A stretch of 24,351 bases of DNA from a virus: UHGV virus genome UHGV-0125333; one strand, written 5' to 3'. The notes under the pieces were generated by a model. It was given only the letters and a program-made list of their open reading frames with translations, was not told the origin of the DNA and did no database searches. Position numbers and translations under genes: made by a program. This document shows, piece by piece, positions 22 through 23,415 of the stretch; positions within the stretch are counted from its first letter, which is position 1; every line of letters starts with the position of its first letter.

Positions 22-52
22 CAGGTCACTATCAGTCAAAATAAAATCATTA
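22..52. promoter_or_regulatory. attP P' arm with three tandem arm-type Int binding sites (AGGTCACTAT, CAGTCAAAAT, AAATCATTAT)
   Basis: The sequence GGTCACTATCAGTCAAAATAAAATCATTAT immediately 3' of int matches the lambda P' arm as I recall it. The core overlap region is not inside the window. Confidence 0.6.
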
Positions 53-1120
53 TTTGATTTCAATTTTGTCCCACTCCCTGCCTCTGTCATCACGATACTG
101 TGATGCCATGGTGTCCGACTTATGCCCGAGAAGATGTTGAGCAAATTTATCGCTTATCTGCTTCTCATAGAGTCTTGCAGACAAACTGCGCAACTCGTGA
201 AAGGTTGGCGGATCCCCTTCGAAGGAGAGACCTGATGCTTTTCGTGCGCGCATAAAATACCTTGATACTGTGCCGGATGAAAGCGGTTCACGACGAGTAG
301 ATGCAATTATGGTTTCTCCGCCAAGAATCTTTTTGCATTTATCAAGTGTTTCCTTCATTGATATCCCGAGAGCATCAACATGCAATGTTGTTGGGATGGC
401 AATTTTTACGCCTGTTTTGCTTTGCTCGACATAAAGATATCCATCTACGATATCAGACCACTTCATTTCGCATAAATCACCAACTCGCTGCCCGGTAACA
501 ACAGCCAGTTCCATTGCAAGTCTGAGCCAACATGGTGATGATTCTGCTGCTTGATAAATTTTCAGGTATTCGTCAGCCGTAAGTCTTGATCTCCTTACCT
601 CTGATTTTGCTGCGCGAGTGGCAGCGACAGGGTTTGTTGTTATATGGCCTTCAGCTATTGCCTCTCGGAATGCATCGCTCAGTGTTGATCTGATTAACTT
701 GGCTGACGCCGCCTTGCCCTCGTCTATGTATCCATTGAGCATTGCCGCAATTTCTTTTGTGGTGATGTCTTCAAGTGGAGCATCAGGCAGACCCCTCCTT
801 ATTGCTTTAATTTTGCTCATGTAATTTATGAGTGTCTTCTGCTTGATTCCTCTGCTGGCCAGGATTTTTTCGTAGCGATCAAGCCATGAATGTAACGTAA
901 CGGAATTATCACTGTTGATTCTCGCTGTCAGAGGCTTGTGTTTGTGTCCTGAAAATAACTCAATGTTGGCCTGTATAGCTTCAGTGATTGCGATTCGCCT
1001 GTCTCTGCCTAATCCAAACTCTTTACCCGTCCTTGGGTCCCTGTAGCAGTAATATCCATTGTTTCTTATATAAAGGTTAGGGGGTAAATCCCGGCGCTCA
1101 TGACTTCGCCTTCTTCCCAT
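50..1120 (-). CDS. int: Tyrosine integrase, lambda Int type
   Basis: 356-aa ORF; N-terminus MGRRRSHERRDLPPNLYIRNNGYYCYRDPRTGKEFGLG and the C-terminal catalytic region (HELRSLSARLY ... HLLGHKSDTMASQY) match lambda Int as recalled. Confidence 0.97.
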   Translation of the reverse strand: MGRRRSHERRDLPPNLYIRNNGYYCYRDPRTGKEFGLGRDRRIAITEAIQANIELFSGHKHKPLTARINSDNSVTLHSWLDRYEKILASRGIKQKTLINYMSKIKAIRRGLPDAPLEDITTKEIAAMLNGYIDEGKAASAKLIRSTLSDAFREAIAEGHITTNPVAATRAAKSEVRRSRLTADEYLKIYQAAESSPCWLRLAMELAVVTGQRVGDLCEMKWSDIVDGYLYVEQSKTGVKIAIPTTLHVDALGISMKETLDKCKKILGGETIIASTRREPLSSGTVSRYFMRARKASGLSFEGDPPTFHELRSLSARLYEKQISDKFAQHLLGHKSDTMASQYRDDRGREWDKIEIK

Positions 1121-2007: not shown

Positions 2008-2805
2008 TTATAGCTCCTTTAATCGAGGCGGTTCTGGTAGAGGCATCCAGTGGGTTACACCGCCAATTGGCTCATCGTCGTCGTACTCCAATGCGGCTAT
2101 ATAGAACCCGTCACGACGAGAATAAGAAATCCCGGACATTACAATGCCATCCGAAACAACAATAATGTCACCCGTTTCTTTCGGCATTCGCTCACTACAG
2201 CTTATCCAACCATCCGGAGTCACCGGAAGCGAGAACGGCAGCACATCTCTGTGAACAAGTTTTTGCTGTGACAGGTTATCCAGAACTTTCTGTACTGCTG
2301 CATCACCGAATACACCAAGCGCATCTGCCATAACTCCTACAACCTGATAAGCCTCAGCGCATACCGTGGATAAACCATCCGGAATTACCGGAGAGTTGCC
2401 GGGTTCTTTAATGTGCAAGCGAGGCTCACCATCTTTTGGTTCAGGCCACTGGCGCTCCATGTTGATCTTCAATTTATCTTCCATAGCAGCGGTAATTTCA
2501 GCATCGCTGATGCCAGCACGGCGCTGTGCATCCCACAACAGGAAATGCATATCAGCCCACTCGCTGAGATCGTCTGGTTCGGCTGCGGCTTCCAGAGCCT
2601 CTTTTGAGAGGTGTTTCAGTGGACCAATGGGGCCAACGCAGCCAAATGTGGAGTCAGACCATTTGGCATGCTCGTGGCGAATCAGTTCGCGTTCCAGTGA
2701 TGCCAGTGCAATTCGTGCCAGTTCCATTTGTTCGCCACGAGTAAGCCCGTTTTCAAGCGGATTTTTAATGAACAATTCAATACGTTCTTTGGTAATAGTG
2801 GTCAT
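2008..2805 (-). CDS. Phage protein with N-terminal dATP/dGTP diphosphohydrolase-like (DUF550) domain and C-terminal DUF551 domain
   Basis: 265-aa ORF with an AAGGAC RBS. The N-terminal half resembles the MazG-like DUF550 family and the C-terminal half (DGWISCSERMP ... GVTHWMPLPEPP) the DUF551 family, a combination common in enterobacterial prophages. Assigned from recall only. Confidence 0.7.
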   Translation of the reverse strand: MTTITKERIELFIKNPLENGLTRGEQMELARIALASLERELIRHEHAKWSDSTFGCVGPIGPLKHLSKEALEAAAEPDDLSEWADMHFLLWDAQRRAGISDAEITAAMEDKLKINMERQWPEPKDGEPRLHIKEPGNSPVIPDGLSTVCAEAYQVVGVMADALGVFGDAAVQKVLDNLSQQKLVHRDVLPFSLPVTPDGWISCSERMPKETGDIIVVSDGIVMSGISYSRRDGFYIAALEYDDDEPIGGVTHWMPLPEPPRLKEL

Positions 2806-2815
2806 TTGTTAGTCC

Positions 2816-3571
2816 TTAAACTGCTAGTTGCAATTGCATTTCAAAGCGGTCGCGTTGTTCACAATACGCAAGAGAACCAGGGCTATTGTGTGCCTCAATC
2901 CGTTCTACCATTAATGCTGCGCGTGTCTCTTTACTTGCAGGTGCATAAGCCCCAGACCAGGCTTTATCAATACCGATGTTTCGAGCGACGTTCGTACTAT
3001 CTGCGCTGGCTAAGGGTAATTTTGTGAATATCAGCGGATTTAACATGCGCAATCCATGTAGTTTCGTAACCGGCTGACCATGCCCATCAACAATGTGACG
3101 AATCAGGTCTTTCATTCTGGCTACCGCAAGAGTTGGGCGCTTTACGTCATAGTCGCCACAACTACCGATAGCCACTCGCGGAAACTCATTGCACAAATGA
3201 ATAAATCGCGCGTCACTTTCATTCATGTGCCACACTGGAACGCCAGCTAGTTTTCCGTGAGGCCACTCATTCAGAAGCGCATCATTTTCCTCCTCTCCGC
3301 CATCAATAATATCCGGGATAATGGCAAAATCGAATCCTGGGTGATTCTTCCAGCGAGCAACAAACTCGTAGTAATCGCTCCAGTCGATTTTGTTTTTGCC
3401 AGCTGCTTTCCAGGCGGTGAATGCACCGTTGTCCAGCGCGAACGACTGACAGTATTCAGCCGCGAGATTGATCTGGCCTGAATGCGCAAAACTGATAAAC
3501 GCATGTCGCCCTTTCCATGCTCTCATTGCGCACGTATCAGGAGTAATAGGCCCACCGTGGTAGTGAATCAT
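2816..3571 (-). CDS. Hypothetical protein (251 aa), family not assigned
   Basis: Long ORF; ATG at 3571 lies 4 nt after the Ea22-like stop and is preceded by an AAGGAG RBS. The track ORF extends 14 codons further upstream. No family confidently recognised. Confidence 0.6.
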   Translation of the reverse strand: MIHYHGGPITPDTCAMRAWKGRHAFISFAHSGQINLAAEYCQSFALDNGAFTAWKAAGKNKIDWSDYYEFVARWKNHPGFDFAIIPDIIDGGEEENDALLNEWPHGKLAGVPVWHMNESDARFIHLCNEFPRVAIGSCGDYDVKRPTLAVARMKDLIRHIVDGHGQPVTKLHGLRMLNPLIFTKLPLASADSTNVARNIGIDKAWSGAYAPASKETRAALMVERIEAHNSPGSLAYCEQRDRFEMQLQLAV

Positions 3572-3572
3572 C

Positions 3573-3980
3573 TCACTCTCCTTTGATGCGAATGCCAGTA
3601 GCGCGGATTGCATCGATGACTTCAGAAACTTTGTATGCCATTACCGTTTGGTAATCATCGTGAAAATCTGTTCGATGAAGCATGCTGCTACGTTCCGGGA
3701 GCAGTATTTCCCGCGCTTCCAGTTCTGCAATGCGCTTTTTTGCTGCTTCCAGTTCATCCAGTAATTCCAGCACGGTAGCCGGATTAGCCTTGGCAACAAA
3801 ATCCCGGACTGGCTTACAATCAATCTCCGCAATGGGTTGATACGATGTGTAGCCATGCTGTCTTGTATAACTACCGTGACGAATAACGAAAAAATCACCA
3901 TTTATTTTTTTAGCCTGCCACTTATCTTCACCGGCTTTCTCTGCCGCTTCACGCAGTGCCTGAGAGTTAATTTCGCTCAC
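3573..3980 (-). CDS. Ead/Ea22-like protein
   Basis: 135-aa ORF starting MSEINSQALREAAEKAGEDKWQAKKINGDFFVIRHG with a coiled-coil-like ELLDELEAAKKRIAELEA segment; resembles the Ead/Ea22-like prophage family. Confidence 0.7.
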   Translation of the reverse strand: MSEINSQALREAAEKAGEDKWQAKKINGDFFVIRHGSYTRQHGYTSYQPIAEIDCKPVRDFVAKANPATVLELLDELEAAKKRIAELEAREILLPERSSMLHRTDFHDDYQTVMAYKVSEVIDAIRATGIRIKGE

Positions 3981-6916: not shown

Positions 6917-7049
6917 TTTTTGGGACTCCTGGCTGATTAAGTATGTCGATAAGGCGTTTCCATCCGTCACGTAATTTACGGGTGATTCGTTCAAGTAAAG
7001 ATTCGGAAGGGCAGCCAGCAACAGGCCACCCTGCAATGGCATATTGCAT
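6885..7049 (-). CDS. cIII: CIII, FtsH inhibitor that stabilises CII
   Basis: Hand translation of the minus strand from the ATG at 7049 gives [54 protein letters not shown] then stop. It is below the 60-aa cutoff of the ORF track. Confidence 0.85.
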   Translation of the reverse strand: MQYAIAGWPVAGCPSESLLERITRKLRDGWKRLIDILNQPGVPKNGSNTYGYPD

Positions 7050-7121
7050 GGTGTGCTCCTTATTTATACATAACGAAAAACGCCTCGAGTGAAGCGTTAT
7101 TGGTATGCGGTAACGCCGCGC

Positions 7122-15227: not shown

Positions 15228-15312
15228 AGTCAGAGATAACAATCAACTAATACTGTTTTGTTGATTTTTGCTTGTAATTGGCGTTCTGGTCTGAGTTTTG
15301 TGGAGTAAGTTG

Positions 15313-15690
15313 ATGCGTGATATTCAGATGGTTCTTGAGCGTTGGGGAGCGTGGGCGGCTAATAATCATGAAGATGTGACCTGGTCGTCCATTGCCGCCG
15401 GTTTTAAGGGATTAATTCCTTCAAAAGTAAAATCTCGCCCACAATGTTGTGACGATGACGCGATGATCATTTGCGGGTGCATGGCCCGTCTGAAAAAGAA
15501 CAACAGCGATTTGCATGATTTATTGGTGGACTATTATGTCGGCGGCATGACTTTTATGGCGCTTGCACGTAAGCATGGGCGATCTGATTGTTGGGTTGGC
15601 AGGATGCTTCAGAAAGCTGAGGGCGTAGTGGAGGGTATGCTGATGGTGTTGGATCTCCGATTGGAGATGGATGCTGATTGTTCGAAATAA
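15313..15690 (+). CDS. Late-gene antiterminator Q, phage-82/QuuD type
   Basis: From the ATG at 15313: [62 protein letters not shown]..., matching the QuuD/Q82 family as recalled. Confidence 0.85.
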
Positions 15691-15694
15691 TTAA

Positions 15695-15789
15695 AGGAAA
15701 AGTTGCTGTCTGATTGTCATTAGTCTAACATTTTAAATGTTGGAATCGCAACGTAGTTATTATCATATAACAGCTTGTTTCCTGATTTA
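15695..15789 (+). promoter_or_regulatory. Candidate late promoter pR' and qut site
   Basis: Placed only from position immediately downstream of Q and upstream of a terminator; no promoter elements confidently identified. Confidence 0.35.
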
Positions 15790-15817
15790 GCCAGCCTCCC
15801 CAAAGGCTGGTCTTTTT
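15790..15817 (+). terminator. tR'-like intrinsic terminator downstream of Q
   Basis: GCCAGCC-TCCCCAAA-GGCTGG hairpin followed by TCTTTTTCT on the plus strand. Confidence 0.55.
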
Positions 15818-15845
15818 CTAATAAGTATTATTTCGGGTAGGGATT

Positions 15846-16370
15846 TTATTGTTTAACCCATAATAATTCATTGACATTGAATCCCAACTTTTGAGCGGTT
15901 CGCACATAGTCTGCTTTTACTTTATCTGGAATAGTTGGGGTCCTTGCCAGAATCCATAGGTATTCTCTGTTCGGACCACTGACAAGAGCATACTTATACT
16001 CATCATCCAGTTTGATTACATTATAGCCACCATAGAAGGGGCCAAAAAACGAAACCTTCAATGCTGCAGTTTTAGTATCTCCAGTAAAGTATGCTTTACC
16101 TTCGCTCTCGCTCCATTTATTTTTCGTTGGATCGTATCCACGGTTAAGTACACGAATCCCTCCGTCGTTCCGTTTTCCATAAGTAGCGCTGACCTGTTCC
16201 AGACCACGTTCGAACCGGTTCTCGAGGCGAGCTATTTCATACCATTTTCCGAGGTAGCGGTTGGCGTCAAAATTTGTAATCGGCTGCACACCTTTAGGTG
16301 GTGTCGGGGCCTTACATGCTATAAGAGTGAAAGAGAGTGCAATGCCAGTCAACACAGGCCATAACTTCAT
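15846..16370 (-). CDS. Bacterial lipocalin (Blc-like) outer-membrane lipoprotein
   Basis: 174-aa ORF with signal peptide and lipobox (FTLIAC) and lipocalin motifs (NFDANRYLGKWYEIARLENRFERG ... KVSFFGPFYGGYNVI) paralleling E. coli Blc; a paralogue, not blc itself. Confidence 0.85.
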   Translation of the reverse strand: MKLWPVLTGIALSFTLIACKAPTPPKGVQPITNFDANRYLGKWYEIARLENRFERGLEQVSATYGKRNDGGIRVLNRGYDPTKNKWSESEGKAYFTGDTKTAALKVSFFGPFYGGYNVIKLDDEYKYALVSGPNREYLWILARTPTIPDKVKADYVRTAQKLGFNVNELLWVKQ

Positions 16371-16562
16371 AATAAATCCTGTACTTTTGATAGTTGAGAG
16401 TAAGTATGAAAGATAGATGATTACGACCGATCACTTAAAGAACTTTCATACTATATTAGGAATAGTCCATAACAGAAAAATTGTCAGTGATGACGCCAGA
16501 AAGGCAATTTATTCCGTGCACTACACAGTTTATGTGTTAATGAATTAGTCAAGGGGGAGAAT

Positions 16563-17522
16563 ATGATAAAAAAACCTGTGATTGGAATCAGCGGTTGTTT
16601 GGCCGGTTCTGCTGTTCGTTTTGATGGTGGTCACAAAAGAGCTGACTTTTTAATGGACAAATTAGTGGAATGGGTAACATTCAGACCAGTATGTCCGGAA
16701 ATGGCTATAGGGCTGCCAGTTCCGCGTCCTGCTCTACGTCTTGTGCGCTCGATGCAAGGAAATATACGGATGTGTTTCAGCCACGACCAGAATGAGGATG
16801 TGACAGAGAGAATGACAGAGTTTAGTCGTTCTTATATGGACAAATTAAAGGATGTATCGGGGTTTGTGGTTTGTGCTAAATCTCCCAGCTGTGGCATGGA
16901 GCGCGTGCGTGTCTATGATGAAAATGGTAATCGAGGTCGTAAAGATGGAGTGGGACTATTTACGAGCACTTTGATGGAAAAGTTTTCCTGGCTACCGGTT
17001 GAAGAGGATGGGCGATTACATGATCCAGTGCTTCGTGAGAATTTTGTTGAAAGAGTTTTTGCTTTGCATGAGCTCAATCACCTTTACAAGGAGAAATTAT
17101 CAAGAAGAGAGTTATTAGCTTTTCATAGTCGTTATAAGCTTCAGTTGTTGGCGCATAGTCAGGCAGGCTATAAAGATATGGGACCATTTGTGGCTGCAAT
17201 ACACGAGTGGGCGGACCTTGAATCATACTTTGAGGTGTATCGTGATAAGCTGATGGCGATTCTCAGAAAACCTGCATCACGTAAAAATCACACGAATGTG
17301 TTGATGCATATACAGGGGTATTTTAGTAACTACTTAAGTACACGCCAGCGTAAAGAGTTGAGCGAGGTTATACTTAACTATCGTTCTGGCACATTACCTC
17401 TTCTTGCGCCGTTGACTCTGCTGAAGCATTATCTGGGTGAGTATCCTAATGATTACTTGCTTACACAGAATTACTTCGATCCCTATCCGGACGAACTGGC
17501 TCTAAGACTGACGGTAAATTAA
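16563..17522 (+). CDS. DUF523-DUF1722 fusion protein (TudS-like Cys-rich N-terminal domain plus YbgA-like C-terminal domain)
   Basis: 319-aa ORF with strong RBS (AAGGGGGAGAAT). N-terminus MIKKPVIGISGCLAGSAVRFDGGHKR with further conserved Cys (PVCPEM, SPSCGMERV) as in the DUF523 family. Assigned from recall. Confidence 0.75.
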   Translation: MIKKPVIGISGCLAGSAVRFDGGHKRADFLMDKLVEWVTFRPVCPEMAIGLPVPRPALRLVRSMQGNIRMCFSHDQNEDVTERMTEFSRSYMDKLKDVSGFVVCAKSPSCGMERVRVYDENGNRGRKDGVGLFTSTLMEKFSWLPVEEDGRLHDPVLRENFVERVFALHELNHLYKEKLSRRELLAFHSRYKLQLLAHSQAGYKDMGPFVAAIHEWADLESYFEVYRDKLMAILRKPASRKNHTNVLMHIQGYFSNYLSTRQRKELSEVILNYRSGTLPLLAPLTLLKHYLGEYPNDYLLTQNYFDPYPDELALRLTVN

Positions 17523-17873
17523 TTGTATGCGATATCATCCAAAAGGATGAGTTCCTGCATGCAGGATATTTACAATCGTAAAAACTACACTATGATACCC
17601 AGAGTGTCAGTTTGTATAAAAACTCTGTTTACTCTGAAGAAACAATTGAGATGCAACTTAAAGTTGGTAAACATGCCAGTCAAAATATATAATATTATGA
17701 TTCCACGCAGCTATATATAATATAACAGATTGGTTTAATAATTTGTCTTTGTGAGTTAAATACATAATTTTATACTTGTGATGCAATGAAATTTTCCTTA
17801 TTGTTGAACTGGCGAATATTGATTTTCCACCTATACTTACCTGGTGTAACCCCAATGATATCAGGTGGATAAT

Positions 17874-18605
17874 ATGCCATACATATGTTCTATCATTTTG
17901 GTGTTGAACTCGTTTGATGTCCGAATTGGTAAAGAAGATATTTTGTTTAAAAAAGGAAGTGCTGTTCTCATTGATTACAATTTAAAAGATTTTTTTTCAT
18001 CAAATATAGATCATGTAATGATCGTAGATGTTGAAGAGAAAACAGTTAATGATTTCTTTAAAAGCAACACACTCTCACCTTTTTCTGTAAGAAGGTTTTA
18101 TCCGGCATACTTGATGGTGGAATGTGAAGATTTTTCATTGTTAAAGAACTTGATTGCATGCTTGAATTGTGATGGCAGAACTGTGGATTTTGTTAGAAAT
18201 CAAATATCACTTGCATGTCTTGCTATCTTATCTTCAGAGAAAATAGTGCAAAGTTTTTTATTTGGATGTCTTAATAGTTTAGGAAGTAAAGTTAAGGCTA
18301 TTATTCACACGGATATATCTGCAGCATGGAGACTTTGTGATATATCTTCAAGACTGTATCTGAGTGAAAGTCTGTTAAAAAGAAAATTAAAGCACGAAGG
18401 CTTATCATTTAGTAAGTTAATTCTTGAAGAGCGAATGGTGATGGCGGAAAGGTTATTAAGCTACAATTTATATTCTGTTGGAAAAGTTGCTGAGATATGC
18501 GGTTATGAAAACACGTCATATTTTGTAAGTGTTTTCAGAAGGTATTTTGGTGTTCCTCCCCATCAATATTCATCAAGATTTTTTTTAGAAAAAGACATGA
18601 TGTAA
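17874..18605 (+). CDS. AraC/XylS-family transcriptional regulator (AppY/EnvY-like)
   Basis: ATG at 17874 (track ORF starts at GTG 17865). C-terminal AraC-type HTH (VGKVAEICGYENTSYFVSVFRRYFGVPPHQY); N-terminus MPYICSIILVLNSF parallels AppY MDYVCSVVFICQSF. AT-rich gene with a long AT-rich upstream region. Confidence 0.85.
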   Translation: MPYICSIILVLNSFDVRIGKEDILFKKGSAVLIDYNLKDFFSSNIDHVMIVDVEEKTVNDFFKSNTLSPFSVRRFYPAYLMVECEDFSLLKNLIACLNCDGRTVDFVRNQISLACLAILSSEKIVQSFLFGCLNSLGSKVKAIIHTDISAAWRLCDISSRLYLSESLLKRKLKHEGLSFSKLILEERMVMAERLLSYNLYSVGKVAEICGYENTSYFVSVFRRYFGVPPHQYSSRFFLEKDMM

Positions 18606-18792
18606 CGTGATGCGTTTTAATGATTTTGTAATTTTCGTATTTGATAATTGTATGATGCTTTCAGCTACGCCAGAATAATCGCGGCGTTTTTCTTTTTGAA
18701 TAGATGTTCAAGCCTTACGCTAATGTAACTTCTATACCTTTCCTCTTCGTTCCGAACCGTGTACACCATCCGTTATTTGCGGAGGTGAGGCT

Positions 18793-19008
18793 ATGAAATC
18801 CATGGATAAGTTAACAACGGGTGTCGCCTATGGCACCTCAGCAGGTAGTGCCGGTTACTGGTTTTTACAGCTGCTCGATAAAGTCACGCCCTCACAGTGG
18901 GCAGCAATAGGTGTGCTGGGTAGCCTGGTATTTGGCCTGCTGACGTACCTGACAAACCTTTATTTCAAGATTAAAGAAGATAAGCGCAAGGCTGCGAGAG
19001 GTGAATAA
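18793..19008 (+). CDS. Class II holin (pinholin), phage-21 S / EssD type, with dual-start motif
   Basis: 71-aa [74 protein letters not shown]. Met1 and Met4 give antiholin/holin starts; strong RBS GGAGGTGAGG. Confidence 0.9.
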
Positions 19009-19505
19009 TGCCTCCATCATTACGAAAAGCCGTTGCTGCTGCTATTGGTGGCGGAGCAATTGCTATAGCATCAGTGTTAATCACTGGCCCAAGTGGTAAC
19101 GATGGTCTGGAAGGTGTCAGCTACATACCATACAAAGATATCGTTGGCGTATGGACTGTATGTCACGGGCATACAGGAAAAGACATCATTCCCGGTAAAA
19201 CGTATACCGAAGCAGAATGCAAAGCCCTCCTGAATAAAGACCTTGCCACGGTAGCCAGACAAATTAACCCGTACATCAAAGTCGATATACCGGAAACAAC
19301 GCGCGGCGCTCTTTACTCGTTCGTCTATAACGTGGGCGCAGGCAATTTCAGAACATCTACTCTTCTTCGCAAAATAAACCAGGGCGATATCAAGGGCGCA
19401 TGTGACCAGCTACGTCGCTGGGCATACGCTGGCGGTAAGCAATGGAAAGGCCTGATGACTCGTCGTGAGATTGAGCGTGAGGTCTGTTTGTGGGGGCAAC
19501 AATGA
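19008..19505 (+). CDS. SAR endolysin (lysozyme, phage-21 R type)
   Basis: 165-aa ORF with an N-terminal Gly/Ala-rich signal-anchor-release segment ([20 protein letters not shown]) and a lysozyme-like body; start overlaps the holin stop (TAATG). Confidence 0.9.
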
Positions 19506-19966
19506 GCAGGGTAACCGCGATTATCTCCGCTCTGGTTATCTGCATCGTCGTCTGCCTGTCATGGGGTGTTAATCATTACCGTGATAACGCCATCGCCTAC
19601 AAAGAACAGCGCGACAAAAATGCCAGAGAACTGAAGCTGGCGAACGCGGCAATTACTGACATGCAGATGCGTCAGCGTGATGTTGCTGCGCTCGATGCAA
19701 AATACACGAAGGAGTTAGCTGATGCGAAAGCTGAAAATGATGTTCTGCGTGATGATGTTGCCGCTGGTCGTCGTCGGTTGCACATCAAAGCAGTCTGTCA
19801 GTCAGTGCGTGAAGCCACCACCGCCTCCGGCGTGGATAATGCAGCCTCCCCCCGACTGGCAGACACCGCTGAACGGGATTATTTCACCCTCCGGGAACGA
19901 CTGGTAATGATGCAGGCCCAACTTGAAGGTGCTCAGCAATACATAACCGAGCAGTGTTTAAAGTAA
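19502..19966 (+). CDS. Rz i-spanin
   Basis: From the ATG at 19502: [60 protein letters not shown]..., matching lambda Rz; overlaps the endolysin stop. Confidence 0.9.
19722..19907 (+). CDS. Rz1 o-spanin lipoprotein, embedded in Rz in the +1 frame
   Basis: ORF with lipobox LPLVVVGC and a proline-rich tail ([25 protein letters not shown]), matching lambda Rz1. Confidence 0.8.
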
Positions 19967-20103
19967 AATCTTAACTACAATATGATTCATTTTGATGATT
20001 GTTTCATAAGGAACAGTGAAGTAAGATCTAAGAGGAGTTAAATTTTATACAGTATAATCATAATATTGCAGCAAGGTGGTTATAATTGAAAGAATATTTA
20101 GAT

Positions 20104-21561
20104 ATGAATACATCTCATGTAAGAGTTGTTACTCATATGTGTGGGTTCCTGGTTTGGCTCTATAGTCTTTCAATGTTGCCACCAATGGTTGTAGCATTGT
20201 TTTATAAAGAAAAAAGCCTGTTCGTTTTCTTTATAACTTTCGTTATATTTTTTTGCATTGGTGGCGGAGCGTGGTATACAACTAAGAAATCTGGCATTCA
20301 ATTACGTACCCGTGATGGGTTTATTATAATTGTAATGTTTTGGATTTTGTTTTCTGTTATTAGTGCATTCCCTTTATGGATTGACTCAGAACTTAATTTA
20401 ACGTTCATTGATGCTCTGTTTGAAGGGGTTTCTGGAATAACAACAACAGGAGCAACTGTAATTGATGATGTTAGTTCATTACCTCGGGCATATTTGTACT
20501 ATCGGTCACAGTTAAATTTTATAGGTGGTTTAGGAGTTATTGTTCTGGCGGTTGCTGTATTGCCATTATTGGGTATTGGTGGTGCAAAGCTTTATCAGTC
20601 AGAAATGCCGGGGCCATTTAAGGATGACAAACTCACTCCCCGCCTGGCCGATACGTCACGGACACTGTGGATAACTTATTCTTTATTAGGTATTGCTTGT
20701 ATTGTCTGTTATAGACTTGCAGGAATGCCTTTGTTTGATGCTATTTGTCACGGGATTTCCACAGTTTCGCTTGGTGGTTTCTCAACTCATAGCGAGAGTA
20801 TCGGATATTTTAATAACTATTTGGTTGAGCTGGTGGCTGGTTCTTTTTCCCTGCTATCGGCTTTCAACTTCACTCTTTGGTATATTGTTATTAGCAGGAA
20901 AACGATAAAACCTTTAATCAGAGATATTGAACTTCGTTTCTTTCTGTTAATAGCCTTAGGGGTGATCATTGTTACCTCTTTCCAGGTCTGGCATATAGGT
21001 ATGTATGACTTGCATGGAAGTTTTATTCATTCGTTTTTTCTTGCCAGCTCCATGCTCACTGATAATGGTTTAGCTACGCAGGATTATGCAAGTTGGCCCA
21101 CGCACACGATAGTGTTTTTGCTGTTGTCAAGTTTCTTTGGGGGATGTATAGGTTCAACTTGTGGTGGAATTAAGTCACTTCGATTTCTTATACTTTTCAA
21201 ACAAAGCAAACACGAGATAAATCAGCTTTCTCATCCCAGAGCGTTGTTGAGTGTAAATGTAGGAGGGAAGATAGTTACAGATCGTGTAATGAGGTCTGTA
21301 TGGAGTTTCTTTTTTCTTTATACTCTCTTCACGGTGTTTTTTATACTGGTGTTAAATGGTATGGGATATGATTTTCTTACATCATTTGCAACAGTGGCTG
21401 CATGTATTAATAATATGGGATTAGGTTTTGGGGCTACTGCATCGTCATTCGGAGTGCTTAATGACATTGCAAAATGTTTAATGTGCATAGCTATGATTCT
21501 TGGTCGCCTTGAAATTTATCCTGTTATTATATTGTTTTCAGGTTTTTTTTGGCGCTCCTAA
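20104..21561 (+). CDS. trkG: TrkG/TrkH-family K+ uptake membrane protein
   Basis: 485 aa from the ATG at 20104 (MNTSHVRVVTHMCGFLVWLYSLSMLPP...), multi-pass membrane protein matching Rac-prophage TrkG as recalled; AT-rich coding sequence. Confidence 0.88.
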   Translation: MNTSHVRVVTHMCGFLVWLYSLSMLPPMVVALFYKEKSLFVFFITFVIFFCIGGGAWYTTKKSGIQLRTRDGFIIIVMFWILFSVISAFPLWIDSELNLTFIDALFEGVSGITTTGATVIDDVSSLPRAYLYYRSQLNFIGGLGVIVLAVAVLPLLGIGGAKLYQSEMPGPFKDDKLTPRLADTSRTLWITYSLLGIACIVCYRLAGMPLFDAICHGISTVSLGGFSTHSESIGYFNNYLVELVAGSFSLLSAFNFTLWYIVISRKTIKPLIRDIELRFFLLIALGVIIVTSFQVWHIGMYDLHGSFIHSFFLASSMLTDNGLATQDYASWPTHTIVFLLLSSFFGGCIGSTCGGIKSLRFLILFKQSKHEINQLSHPRALLSVNVGGKIVTDRVMRSVWSFFFLYTLFTVFFILVLNGMGYDFLTSFATVAACINNMGLGFGATASSFGVLNDIAKCLMCIAMILGRLEIYPVIILFSGFFWRS

Positions 21562-21698: not shown

Positions 21699-22490
21699 AT
21701 GAGCGAGAAATTAAAGATAGTCTATCGCCCATTACAAGAATTGTCACCGTATGCGCACAACGCCAGGACGCACAGCCCTGAGCAGGTGGCACAACTGGTA
21801 GAAAGTATTAAGCAATTCGGCTGGACTAATCCGGTGCTGATTGACGAAAAGGGCGAAATTATTGCGGGTCACGGTCGTGTTATGGCGGCTGAAATGCTCA
21901 AAATGGATTCTGTTCCGGTCATTGTTCTGTCTGGCCTGACGGATGAGCAGAAAAAGGCGTACCGCCTGGCAGATAATCGCCTGCCGATGAATGCTGGCTG
22001 GGATGAAGATCTGTTGCGGATGGAGCTGTCGGACCTAATCAATGCTGATTTTGATGTCTCCCTGACAGGCTTCATCCCGACAGAAATTGATGAACTGTTG
22101 ACGGATGTTTTGCCCGGTACAGGAAATGAGGAGGAGCCGTATACGACGAAAATTGATACGCCTGTTTATGAGCCGTCGGGCGGTAAACCGGATATCAGTG
22201 AACTGTACGACGATACGAAAACTCAGGAGCTGATCAGCCGGATACGTTCGGCGTCCCTTGAGCCTGATATTGAGAAATTCCTCCTGTGTGCGGCAGAACG
22301 TCACACGGTGTTTAATTTCAGCAGAATTGCGGACTATTACGCTCACGCCCCCTCTGAAATTCAGTGTTTTTTCGAGGAGTCGGCGCTGGTGATCATTGAT
22401 TATCAGCAGGCTATTGAAAATGGATTTGTCCGGATGACGCAGCGCATGGTGGAGATCATGCATGGTGGTGAGGAGGAGGAATATGCGTGA
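21699..22490 (+). CDS. ParB N-terminal-domain (ParB/Srx-fold nuclease-like) protein
   Basis: 263-aa ORF with a ParB-box-like region (VLIDEKGEIIAGHGRVMAAEMLKMDSVPVIVL) and an acidic C-terminal tail. It sits where ynaK lies in Rac, downstream of trkG. Confidence 0.8.
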   Translation: MSEKLKIVYRPLQELSPYAHNARTHSPEQVAQLVESIKQFGWTNPVLIDEKGEIIAGHGRVMAAEMLKMDSVPVIVLSGLTDEQKKAYRLADNRLPMNAGWDEDLLRMELSDLINADFDVSLTGFIPTEIDELLTDVLPGTGNEEEPYTTKIDTPVYEPSGGKPDISELYDDTKTQELISRIRSASLEPDIEKFLLCAAERHTVFNFSRIADYYAHAPSEIQCFFEESALVIIDYQQAIENGFVRMTQRMVEIMHGGEEEEYA

Positions 22491-23415
22491 TGATTTTTGC
22501 GCCTTTATTCTGACTCACGGGCGACCGGACAAAGTTCTGACTTACCGGACGTTGCGTCGTGCTGGCTATACCGGGAAAATTTTTATCGTTGTTGATGATG
22601 AAGATAAGACACGGAATCAGTACATGGCTGAATTTGGTGAACAGGTGCTGGTGTTTTCCAAAGCCGATATCGCCAGTCGTTTTGACGAAGCCGATAATTT
22701 CTGTGACCGCCGCTCAATTTTTTACGCCCGTAATGCCTGTTTCGACCTGGCAAAACTGGTCGGGTGTAAATACTTCATTCAGCTCGATGATGATTATCAC
22801 GAGTTCCAGTTTCGGGTGGATCGCAACTATGACCAGGCCTATTTTCCGATAAGGAAACTGGATGCGATCCTTTCTGAAATGCTGGCGTACTACGAATCAA
22901 TACCTGCTCTTTCCATCGCTATGTCGCAGGGCGGGGATTTTCTTGGTGACAATGGCGGCCATGCTTCGTGGGTGAAACGCAAGGCAATGAACAGCTTTAT
23001 CTGTTCGGTTGATCGACCGTTCTCATTCATGGGGCGCATTAACGAGGATGTGAATACGTACACGAATCTCGGTCGCTGTGGTGAATTGTTTATGACGATC
23101 GGTGCTGTCCAGTTAGGGCAGAAACAGACGCAGAAAAACAGCGGCGGAATGACCGAGCTGTATCTGGATTCCGGAACCTACGTTAAAAGTTTTTACTCCG
23201 TCATGTATGCGCCGTCGTGCGTAAAAATCTCACTGATGGGTGCCAGCCATAAACGCATTCACCATCAGGTCACCTGGAACAACGCTGCAGTAAAAATCCT
23301 TCACGAAAAATACAGGAAGAAGACACCCTGCATATCAATGGGGGTGACAAATGATTCCGTATTCGAAAGTCGAGTCTCTGGCAGCGTGCCGGATGACTGC
23401 ACAACAAATCGCTGA
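22483..23415 (+). CDS. GT-A-fold glycosyltransferase-like protein (GT2-like signature), translationally coupled to the ParB-like gene
   Basis: ATG at 22483 overlaps the upstream stop by 8 nt. N-terminal FILTHGRPD ... IFIVVDDEDKT and the later ARNACFDLAKLVGCKYFIQLDDDYHEF block resemble the two nucleotide-sugar-binding motifs of GT-A enzymes. It sits where ydaY lies in Rac. Confidence 0.65.
   Translation: MRDDFCAFILTHGRPDKVLTYRTLRRAGYTGKIFIVVDDEDKTRNQYMAEFGEQVLVFSKADIASRFDEADNFCDRRSIFYARNACFDLAKLVGCKYFIQLDDDYHEFQFRVDRNYDQAYFPIRKLDAILSEMLAYYESIPALSIAMSQGGDFLGDNGGHASWVKRKAMNSFICSVDRPFSFMGRINEDVNTYTNLGRCGELFMTIGAVQLGQKQTQKNSGGMTELYLDSGTYVKSFYSVMYAPSCVKISLMGASHKRIHHQVTWNNAAVKILHEKYRKKTPCISMGVTNDSVFESRVSGSVPDDCTTNR

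Follow-up and report, generated by a model that had tools for sequence, protein, structure and literature searches.

The window, by which we mean the whole 24,351-nt stretch of DNA analyzed here, comes from an E. coli lambda-like prophage. Between the antiterminator gene Q with its terminator and the holin gene it carries three genes: a blc-like lipocalin gene on the minus strand and, on the plus strand, rudS and a gene for an AraC-type regulator. The initial annotation had described this same arrangement, and every element was found where it had been placed, with all gene calls correct. Q (15313-15690, plus strand) encodes 125 aa when read from the RefSeq start at 15313 (the ORF is listed from a TTG at 15298), matches PF06530 with 173 bits, falls in phrog_79 and is annotated in L001 as antiterminator Q family; it is 87-89% identical to the Q proteins of phages 434B and ev243, both of which have a porin gene in place of the island. 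The leader downstream of Q contains, as had been proposed, a tR'-like intrinsic terminator, which the terminator scan placed at 15790-15819 on the plus strand (hairpin 15790-15811 plus a T-run; -14.2 kcal/mol, z = -3.6) and which is conserved in the alignment with Lambda_2E9/1H12. Its U-run is present on the plus strand only, with none on the minus strand, so this terminator acts on rightward (late) transcripts but not on that of blc. The pR' promoter could not be pinpointed from the sequence, the candidate hexamers being weak; the leader also holds ATATAACAG, conserved across the aligned Q relatives, which could be a -10-like or pause element.

On the other side the slot is closed by the lysis cassette (18793-19966, plus strand), with an S21-type holin, a SAR-type lysozyme and Rz (PF04971, PF00959 and PF03245); the P21/S21-type holin gene occupies 18793-19008, and Rz1 is nested inside Rz at 19722-19907. 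The spacer between araC and the holin gene (18606-18792, plus strand) has a weak terminator-like hairpin with a T-run at about 18667-18697; as a terminator, the hairpin 3' of araC scored no better than shuffled sequences and was rejected.

Comparison with relatives lacking the insert, which had been suggested as a way to define its limits, gave sharp boundaries. Relatives with other cargo lose their homology to the window at ~15672, some 18 nt short of the stop codon of Q, and the porin-carrying ones match it again from ~18778, some 15 nt ahead of the holin ATG. The interval originally proposed (15691-18792) is thus essentially exact, and the junctions fall at the ends of the genes Q and S. 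Flanking direct repeats, which had also been suggested, did not materialize: only chance-level short matches were found, direct or inverted, giving no support for a discrete insertion event, and the island contains no recombinase ORF. It also contains no Rfam matches or tRNAs, and structured RNAs in its spacers were rejected. The island was seen in att-lambda-type, Qin-like and DLP12-like prophage backbones.

The blc-like lipocalin gene

The minus-strand gene (15846-16370) encodes a 174-aa blc-like outer-membrane lipocalin lipoprotein with the lipobox L-I-A-C19. It matches Lipocalin_2 (PF08212) with 150 bits and passes the NCBIfam Blc model (NF007786; 316 bits against a cut-off of 267), its lipoprotein signal (MKLWPVLTGIALSFTLIAC19) aligns with the lipobox VVAC of K-12 Blc, and overall it is 60% identical to the K-12 protein. 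It is also 100% identical to the L001 CDS annotated as WP_000780581.1, a protein detected in a published lysogen proteome, where it rose 2.0-fold and 3.0-fold 15 min after meropenem. Furthermore, Mathieu et al. (2020, PMC6969025) counted blc among the morons of more than half of the 19 lambda phages they had from the infant gut.

The divergent intergenic region between blc and rudS (16371-16562; GC 0.339) is mostly unalignable with the corresponding chromosomal spacers, short boxes excepted. One such box is a -10-like CATACT at 16408-16403 (minus strand), a candidate blc promoter element that lines up with a CTACACT preceding the chromosomal copies of blc; the K-12 blc promoter is a stationary-phase and stress promoter that depends on rpoS. 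A perfect 10-bp inverted repeat (16403-16412/16443-16452) was considered as an operator and rejected, since non-compensatory changes break the repeat in 1H12.

The rudS gene

The second gene (16563-17522, plus strand, 319 aa) had been described as encoding a DUF523-DUF1722 protein. The domains were right (PF04463, 137 bits, residues 7-149; PF08349, 140 bits, residues 192-309), but an activity has now been demonstrated for the family: this TudS(DUF523)-DUF1722 fusion is RudS, a predicted [4Fe-4S] tRNA 4-thiouridine desulfidase. The protein is identical to RudS_vir (gp66 of Escherichia phage 1H12) at 298 of 319 positions (93.4%), among them all six key residues, namely the cluster ligands C12, C44 and C110, and the catalytic E46, S107 and S109; the cysteine positions agree with Table 1 of the published study (PMC11417400). 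Overexpression of RudS_vir in E. coli lowers tRNA s4U (Nucleic Acids Res 2024, PMC11417400), although its tRNA desulfidation was below that of other RudS proteins despite good expression, and RudS overexpression shortens the UVA-induced growth delay (PMC11417400). From its identity to RudS_vir, the allele in the window is predicted to lower tRNA s4U as well. Erasure of s4U is tied to near-UV stress, a stress not easily connected with life in the gut. The hairpin that follows rudS is stable (-19.3 kcal/mol) but has no U-run and was rejected as a terminator.

The AraC-type regulator

The third gene (17874-18605, plus strand) encodes a 243-aa AraC/XylS-type regulator of the PatE/YdeO/AppY group (HTH_18, HTH_AraC; phrog_1450); its ORF is listed from a GTG at 17865, and both the RefSeq start and the alignment with PatE place the start at the ATG at 17874. 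With its C-terminal double helix-turn-helix and whole-length homology (the alignments with PatE, AppY and YdeO all run from residue 1 to about 235), it has the features of that group. Identity to PatE is 54% overall, 40% in the N-domain and 72% in the DNA-binding domain, compared with 32% each to AppY and YdeO over the full alignments; the NCBIfam equivalog model for YdeO gave 127 bits against a cut-off of 348, making the regulator a relative of YdeO and not YdeO itself. No AraC homolog was present in the examined part of Sakai prophage Sp6.

PatE and PsrB activate acid-resistance promoters of the gadE/hdeAB type (review PMC10877973), and the 72% identity of the DNA-binding domain to that of PatE suggests that the regulator does the same; since the N-domain is only 40% identical, it may respond to another signal and control another regulon. 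A "PatE" that has been overexpressed in E. coli Nissle (CIW80_12240; bioRxiv 2025) was considered as a possible match to this gene; RefSeq locus tags do not map onto the GenBank tags there, RS12240 being bcsZ.

Composition and origin

The island had been called AT-rich as a whole, and it is so on average (GC 0.382 vs. 0.471 in the rest of the window), but unevenly: blc (0.438) and rudS (0.433) are well above araC (0.318) and the rudS-araC spacer (0.316), and the lowest-GC 732-bp windows of the entire 24,351 nt fall in the araC stretch. The part of the initial description that did not stand is therefore the single island of three genes. The three genes are present, but they form two modules of unlike GC and history, because GC is 0.418 in blc-rudS and 0.329 in the araC part, identity to 1H12 collapses to 40-59% at 17597-17793 within the spacer that joins them, and synonymous divergence from strain LWY6 is 0.05 for blc and rudS and 0.30 for araC. 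The rudS-araC spacer itself (17523-17873, plus strand), the recombination joint between the modules, contains sigma-70-like sites at 17569-17596 and 17664-17693 and, among IS breakpoints, an IS3 target at 17835-17838, where the IS3 copy sits 36 nt ahead of the araC ATG. A 20-nt repeat (15761-15780/17716-17735) was considered as what remained of a second late leader; within the phage collection nothing related to the spacer was found beyond the island, and we treat the repeat as chance.

Outside phages, blc and rudS have their nearest relatives in the chromosomes of other Enterobacteriaceae. Of 62 chromosomal rudS loci, 43 are preceded by a blc gene that diverges from rudS as in the phage, and 43 have a merR gene (MlrA-like) no more than 6 kb upstream of rudS. 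The full order blc, merR, transthyretin, rudS was found at 36 loci, and the araC gene at none. The phage pair is thus a reduced copy of the enterobacterial cluster consisting of blc, an mlrA-like merR, a transthyretin-like gene and rudS, from which the regulator was lost; a MerR/LitR-type neighbor, typical though not obligatory for RudS, is absent from the island.

Prevalence and selection

The view of these genes as cargo (morons) is borne out by their composition, by the chromosomal relatives of blc and rudS and by their absence from 57 of the 69 phage records with the same Q type; most relatives with both this Q and this holin type lack them. The comparison that had been drawn with the nmpC porin of DLP12 also proved apt: an nmpC/OmpD porin occupies the slot there, and in phages 434B and ev243 as well. 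Island DNA was found in 12 phage genomes, including IdasGreatGrand (99.1% identical) and 1H12, and in 1156 of 5426 complete E. coli genomes, 992 of which carry at least 80% of it.

In each of four alleles the three ORFs are intact, with dN/dS of 0.06-0.19 for blc, 0.11-0.24 for rudS and 0.22-0.26 for araC; all three genes are under purifying selection. Insertions of IS2, IS3, IS1 and IS5 and deletions are common in the cassette, so many lysogens do without parts of it. Relatives without the island are viable phages; IS-deleted versions of the island were seen solely in prophages.

Discussion

Taken together, the evidence makes it quite probable that the locus is a two-module moron cassette, with the roles proposed below, in a variable slot between Q, its leader and terminator and the lysis genes. 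The first module (about 15691-17522) would be the divergent blc-rudS pair, a reduced chromosomal cluster without its MerR regulator. Its blc gene, on the strand opposite to late transcription, would be expressed from its own promoter in the lysogen to give an outer-membrane lipocalin lipoprotein, and RudS, as a [4Fe-4S] desulfidase, would turn the 4-thiouridine of host tRNA (s4U8) back into uridine. The second module (about 17523-18792) would contribute the very AT-rich gene for the PatE-like AraC regulator, which is probably silenced by H-NS until de-repressed and which most likely activates gadE/hdeAB-type genes of the host for acid resistance and stress, as its relatives do. Upon induction, rudS and araC would be read through by Q-modified polymerase, and each of the three genes may have its own promoter as well, to the presumed benefit of host or phage. 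For this scheme of late read-through of the plus-strand genes combined with separate promoters in the lysogen, the only direct support is Blc in the lysogen proteome; the promoter scan found 15 promoter-like sites against 13.2 expected in shuffled sequence.

A more far-reaching version of this reading is that the phage captured a chromosomal stress pair, dropped its MerR regulation and brought rudS under late-promoter control, so that induction would erase s4U8 from host tRNA, while the PatE-like regulator separately rewires acid resistance in the lysogen. We regard this as rather unlikely. If it were true, about one-fifth of the complete E. coli genomes searched would carry a phage-controlled switch for tRNA de-modification, though E. 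coli has been described as a species without RudS (PMC11417400). With island DNA in 1156 of 5426 genomes, strain background should matter in s4U and near-UV experiments. Loss of MerR and the position in the late operon would connect prophage induction with tRNA de-modification in a way that can be tested, and a common, uncharacterized PatE paralog could add to strain differences in acid resistance.

It is improbable, in our estimation, that the cassette serves mainly as a helper of the lytic cycle, with Q-driven read-through after induction (often by UV or the SOS response) producing RudS and expression in the lysogen being secondary. That rudS is the first plus-strand gene past the late leader and terminator, that the phage copy lacks the chromosomal MerR control and that RudS overexpression reduces the UVA-induced growth delay (PMC11417400) would all fit such a role, but the tRNA activity of RudS_vir is comparatively low, the gut habitat has no UV, blc is oriented against late transcription and no lytic role suggests itself for araC. 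That the genes are hitch-hiker DNA without function, decaying in a cryptic prophage, is already disfavored, and to us very improbable: three ORFs intact in four diverged alleles (dN/dS 0.06-0.26), the presence of the cassette in viable phages, the activity of RudS_vir and the detected Blc protein argue against it, despite the frequent IS insertions and IS-mediated deletions inside the cassette, the E. coli B-lineage strains that retain just blc and a rudS stub (H198) and promoter evidence at chance level. Slightly less credible still is that the genes, instead of being cargo, serve the phage in a conserved way (for example, in late regulation or the control of lysis). They do hold a fixed position inside the late operon, with rudS and araC co-directional with late transcription, and always accompany the same Q type; against this stand the 57 of 69 same-Q records without the cassette, the relatives with a near-identical holin that carry a porin instead, the chromosomal, non-phage relatives of blc and rudS in the same arrangement and the prophages with IS-deleted versions.

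We give the least credence of all to a defense or superinfection-exclusion island, in which Blc would mask a receptor in the manner of Cor or Llp, or incoming phages would be blocked through de-modification of tRNA. Surface lipoproteins (bor, cor) are frequent among lambdoid morons, and membrane proteins dominate lambda morons (Mathieu et al., 2020, PMC6969025), but a PADLOC search returned no match for any of the three proteins, and Blc is a close paralog of a housekeeping lipocalin, syntenic with rudS in chromosomes without phage context. The two-module moron cassette thus remains our preferred reading. The cassette is real and under selection, yet it is common and its parts have already been described, so it is not new and matters little as a discovery: it is widespread and annotated, it occurs in viable phages whose genomes have been sequenced, and its parts have been published. 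What the present analysis adds is the two-module structure, with a chromosomal cluster behind blc-rudS and a separate history for the araC part, the purifying selection and the identity match that ties Blc to the proteome.

Comparison with known systems

As a moron in the Q-to-holin slot, the cassette has a parallel in the nmpC/lc porin morons of DLP12, PA-2, 434B and ev243, which are alternative cargo in the same slot with the same junctions, a related Q and a near-identical S21-type holin; their content is unrelated, however, the porin being a single minus-strand gene. The stx genes of Stx phages are also positioned between Q and the holin gene, and two of the three island genes (rudS and araC) have the orientation of the late operon, like stx. 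The lipocalin shares with chromosomal E. coli Blc the Lipocalin_2 fold family, the lipoprotein signal and a passing score in the NCBIfam Blc model, but differs from K-12 Blc in belonging to a second paralog group (about 80% identity), which adjoins rudS in the chromosomes of Enterobacter, Leclercia and Citrobacter. RudS_vir has the same length (319 aa), the same TudS plus DUF1722 architecture and the same position between blc and araC in the Q-to-holin slot, and the allele in the window differs from it by 21 substitutions; chromosomal RudS genes differ in that the phage rudS has no adjacent MerR/LitR-type regulator. Finally, PatE (Z0321/ECs_0287), the acid-resistance activator of EHEC, is likewise prophage-borne, very AT-rich, of similar size and homologous over its full length to the regulator described here, but its gene sits after the tail-fiber/pin region of prophage Sp1, outside the Q-to-holin slot.

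Prophage Organization

By its gene content the window is a lambda-like prophage, in which Int (50-1120, minus strand) is followed by recombination genes of the Exo/Bet type, a lambda CIII thermoregulator RNA element or thermometer (7004-7062, minus strand; a full-length match to Rfam RF01804 at 88.5 bits) and then SieB, N, an S24-type repressor, CII, O, P, NinB, a Dam methylase, NinX, RusA and YlcG. Q (15313-15690) has YlcG on one side and the island on the other; an S21-type holin gene starts at 18793, followed by lysozyme and Rz/Rz1, and the right end carries trkG, a ParB-like gene, a TAGT glycosyltransferase and the small terminase. In the early-left region, a dATP/dGTP pyrophosphohydrolase domain is fused to DUF551 (2008-2805, minus strand) and adjoins a 265-aa ORF (2816-3613) with no Pfam match. 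A second AT-rich passenger of the late region, trkG (20086-21561; TrkH family, 484 bits; GC 0.378), lies immediately 3' of Rz/Rz1, as it does in the K-12 Rac prophage. The ParB_N-like gene (21699-22490) is followed by the “TET-associated glycosyltransferase” gene (TAGT, 22462-23415; PF20691, 121 bits), intact in the window just 5' of the small terminase and frameshifted in strain MB52; it may have a DNA-modification function.

Between Q and the holin are exactly the three genes named in the initial annotation: the lipocalin lipoprotein gene blc (15846-16370, minus strand; Lipocalin_2 at 150 bits, and NCBIfam Blc at 316 bits against a model cut-off of 267 bits), the TudS/DUF523-DUF1722 fusion gene rudS (16563-17522, plus strand) and, 3' of rudS, the gene araC for an AraC-type regulator of 243 aa that starts at ATG 17874. 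Identical copies annotated in RefSeq, like the alignment to the homologue PatE, support this araC start over a GTG at 17865.

The Cargo Slot

The evidence points to these genes being cargo and not core. Comparison with relatives lacking the insert (flanking sequences run by megablast against the phage collection) set its boundaries: homology to other phages with the same Q type ends ~18 nt short of the Q stop codon, and homology to phages with the same holin restarts ~15 nt ahead of the holin ATG. The three genes occur in only 12 of the 69 phage records with the same Q type, and in phages 434B and ev243 and the K-12 DLP12 prophage the slot is filled by an alternative cargo, an nmpC/OmpD-type porin gene on the minus strand. 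Stx phages carry stx in this same Q-to-holin slot. A search for flanking repeats or a recombinase pointing to a discrete mobile element at the island found none, and the junctions, which fall at gene ends, resemble the usual mosaic joints of lambdoid phages. Both the description and the interpretation in the initial annotation are right, and the feature is an ordinary one that has already been documented piece by piece.

Two Modules Under Selection

The island is indeed AT-rich (GC 0.382 versus 0.471 in the rest of the window), but not uniformly so: blc (0.438) and rudS (0.433) stand well above araC (0.318) and the rudS-araC spacer (0.316). Identity to Escherichia phage 1H12 is 90–98% across the leader, blc and most of rudS, drops to 40–59% in the spacer (17597-17793) and returns to 78–93% in araC, while synonymous divergence from strain LWY6 is 0.05 in blc and rudS and 0.30 in araC. 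Taken together, the GC step, the collapse of identity and the divergence show that blc-rudS and araC had separate histories and were joined in the spacer. Were the three genes simply junk DNA, their ORFs would hardly all be intact in four alleles with dN/dS of 0.06–0.19 (blc), 0.11–0.24 (rudS) and 0.22–0.26 (araC); these values speak for selection on each of them.

RudS, Blc and Their Chromosomal Origin

What was DUF523 has been renamed TudS, and its fusion with DUF1722 is known as RudS, a [4Fe-4S] desulfidase that takes the 4-thiouridine (s4U) mark off tRNA; in a 2024 study, overexpression of RudS_vir (H3V29_gp66 of phage 1H12) decreased s4U in E. coli tRNA (PMC11417400). The RudS_vir gene is the counterpart of the window rudS within the same three-gene island; the proteins are identical at 298 of 319 positions, with Cys12, Cys44, Cys110, Glu46, Ser107 and Ser109 all kept, and K-12 YbgA shares 49% identity with the C-terminal half. 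Blc is 60% identical to K-12 Blc, with the lipobox cysteine kept, and over half of a set of 19 lambda phages have been listed with blc as a moron (Mathieu et al., 2020; PMC6969025).

With one genome scanned per species, 62 chromosomal loci encoding RudS at 66–77% identity were recovered, in Citrobacter, Enterobacter, Leclercia, Kluyvera and Pectobacterium, among others. A Blc paralogue (69–82% identical to the window Blc) is encoded upstream of rudS in 43 of these loci, in the divergent orientation seen in the phage, and 36 of the 62 species representatives have the order blc (minus strand), MerR-family (MlrA-like) regulator, transthyretin/HIUase-like gene, rudS; blc and rudS are directly adjacent, as in the phage, in Citrobacter sedlakii and one other Citrobacter. 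None of the 62 loci has the island's AraC gene. This synteny marks the phage blc-rudS pair as a conserved chromosomal cluster in reduced form, with the regulator lost. Ahead of blc, the phage has kept a -10-like box (CATACT, against CTACACT in the chromosomal loci) and a second short box, both with putative roles. The pairing of a lipocalin with a tRNA s4U eraser goes unmentioned in the RudS paper, where the word “lipocalin” appears nowhere in the text (PMC11417400).

Distribution

Island DNA was found in 1156 of 5426 complete E. coli genomes (992 with at least 80% of the island), in identity classes of about 99%+, 94% and 90%. It sits in an att-lambda-type prophage beside ybhC, in Qin-like prophages with hokD, rem and ydfU, and in DLP12-like prophages, always behind the same Q type. 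The published statement that RudS is absent from E. coli (PMC11417400) is true of K-12, yet roughly one in five complete genomes carries the prophage cassette and contradicts it. Twelve phage genomes carry the island between Q and the holin, among them IdasGreatGrand at 99.1% identity and, from the infant gut, 1H12 and Lambda_ev (89%); each of the three proteins has its own PHROG family, and in the phage collection full-length RudS is limited to this one coliphage group.

Partial copies are the product of IS1- or IS5-mediated deletions. E. coli NEBExpress (a known B-lineage laboratory strain, the only one of the two so known) and strain G5 match island positions 1-1010 only, at 97.3% identity, that is, blc and about the first 50 rudS codons, annotated as “2-thiouracil desulfurase family protein.” IS3 was mapped in strain BKQWHE at 17835-17838, 36 nt 5' of the araC ATG, and several other strains (chicken, dog, calf, pig) have, somewhere within the island, an IS3 that matches it in total size; strain 23CRST009 has IS2 at 17469-17475, within the last 50 nt of rudS, and further strains have island copies of ISKpn26 (IS5-like) and IS1. 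These insertions could reflect one inherited event or repeated hits altering araC expression. Two short “Candidatus Nanosynbacter” MAG contigs (JARKOR01) carry the E. coli prophage island, Q and holin at 93–100% protein identity, almost certainly through E. coli contamination of the bin.

Expression and the AraC-Type Regulator

The Q leader contains a hairpin (15790-15811; -14.2 kcal/mol, z = -3.6) with a U-run on the plus strand only, making it a terminator of rightward transcription from the late leader; the late promoter, sought in the leader sequence, could not be pinned down. On induction, Q-modified polymerase would pass this terminator and transcribe rudS and araC, antisense to blc. The island genes would additionally be driven by their own promoters, and H-NS may silence the very AT-rich araC module. 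A promoter scan gave good sigma-70-like sites 5' of araC (17569-17596 and 17664-17693), such sites being no commoner over the region as a whole than in shuffled sequence. A 20-nt direct repeat (85% identical) that includes ATATAACAG has one copy in the late leader (15761-15780), where ATATAACAG is invariant among Q relatives with different cargo, and the other upstream of araC (17716-17735); further support was looked for and none found, and the repeat is probably due to chance.

The window Blc is 100% identical to a protein of strain MB52 annotated as WP_000780581.1, which a 2026 proteomics study quantified in E. coli CCUG 70745; 15 min after meropenem its abundance had increased 2.0-fold and 3.0-fold, together with that of envelope-stress lipoproteins. 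Direct evidence that an island gene is expressed comes from this protein alone, and it fits a promoter belonging to blc itself, because blc is antisense to late transcription.

The regulator is 32% identical to both AppY and YdeO and falls far under the cut-off of the YdeO equivalog model. Its whole-length homologue is PatE (ECs_0287, Sakai prophage Sp1): overall identity is 54%, with the N-terminal domain at 40% and the DNA-binding domain at 72%. PatE and PsrB are activators of gadE and hdeAB, and PatE also decreases LEE gene expression (2024 review, PMC10877973); by analogy, our best guess is that the window regulator has a PatE-like role in activating acid-resistance genes.
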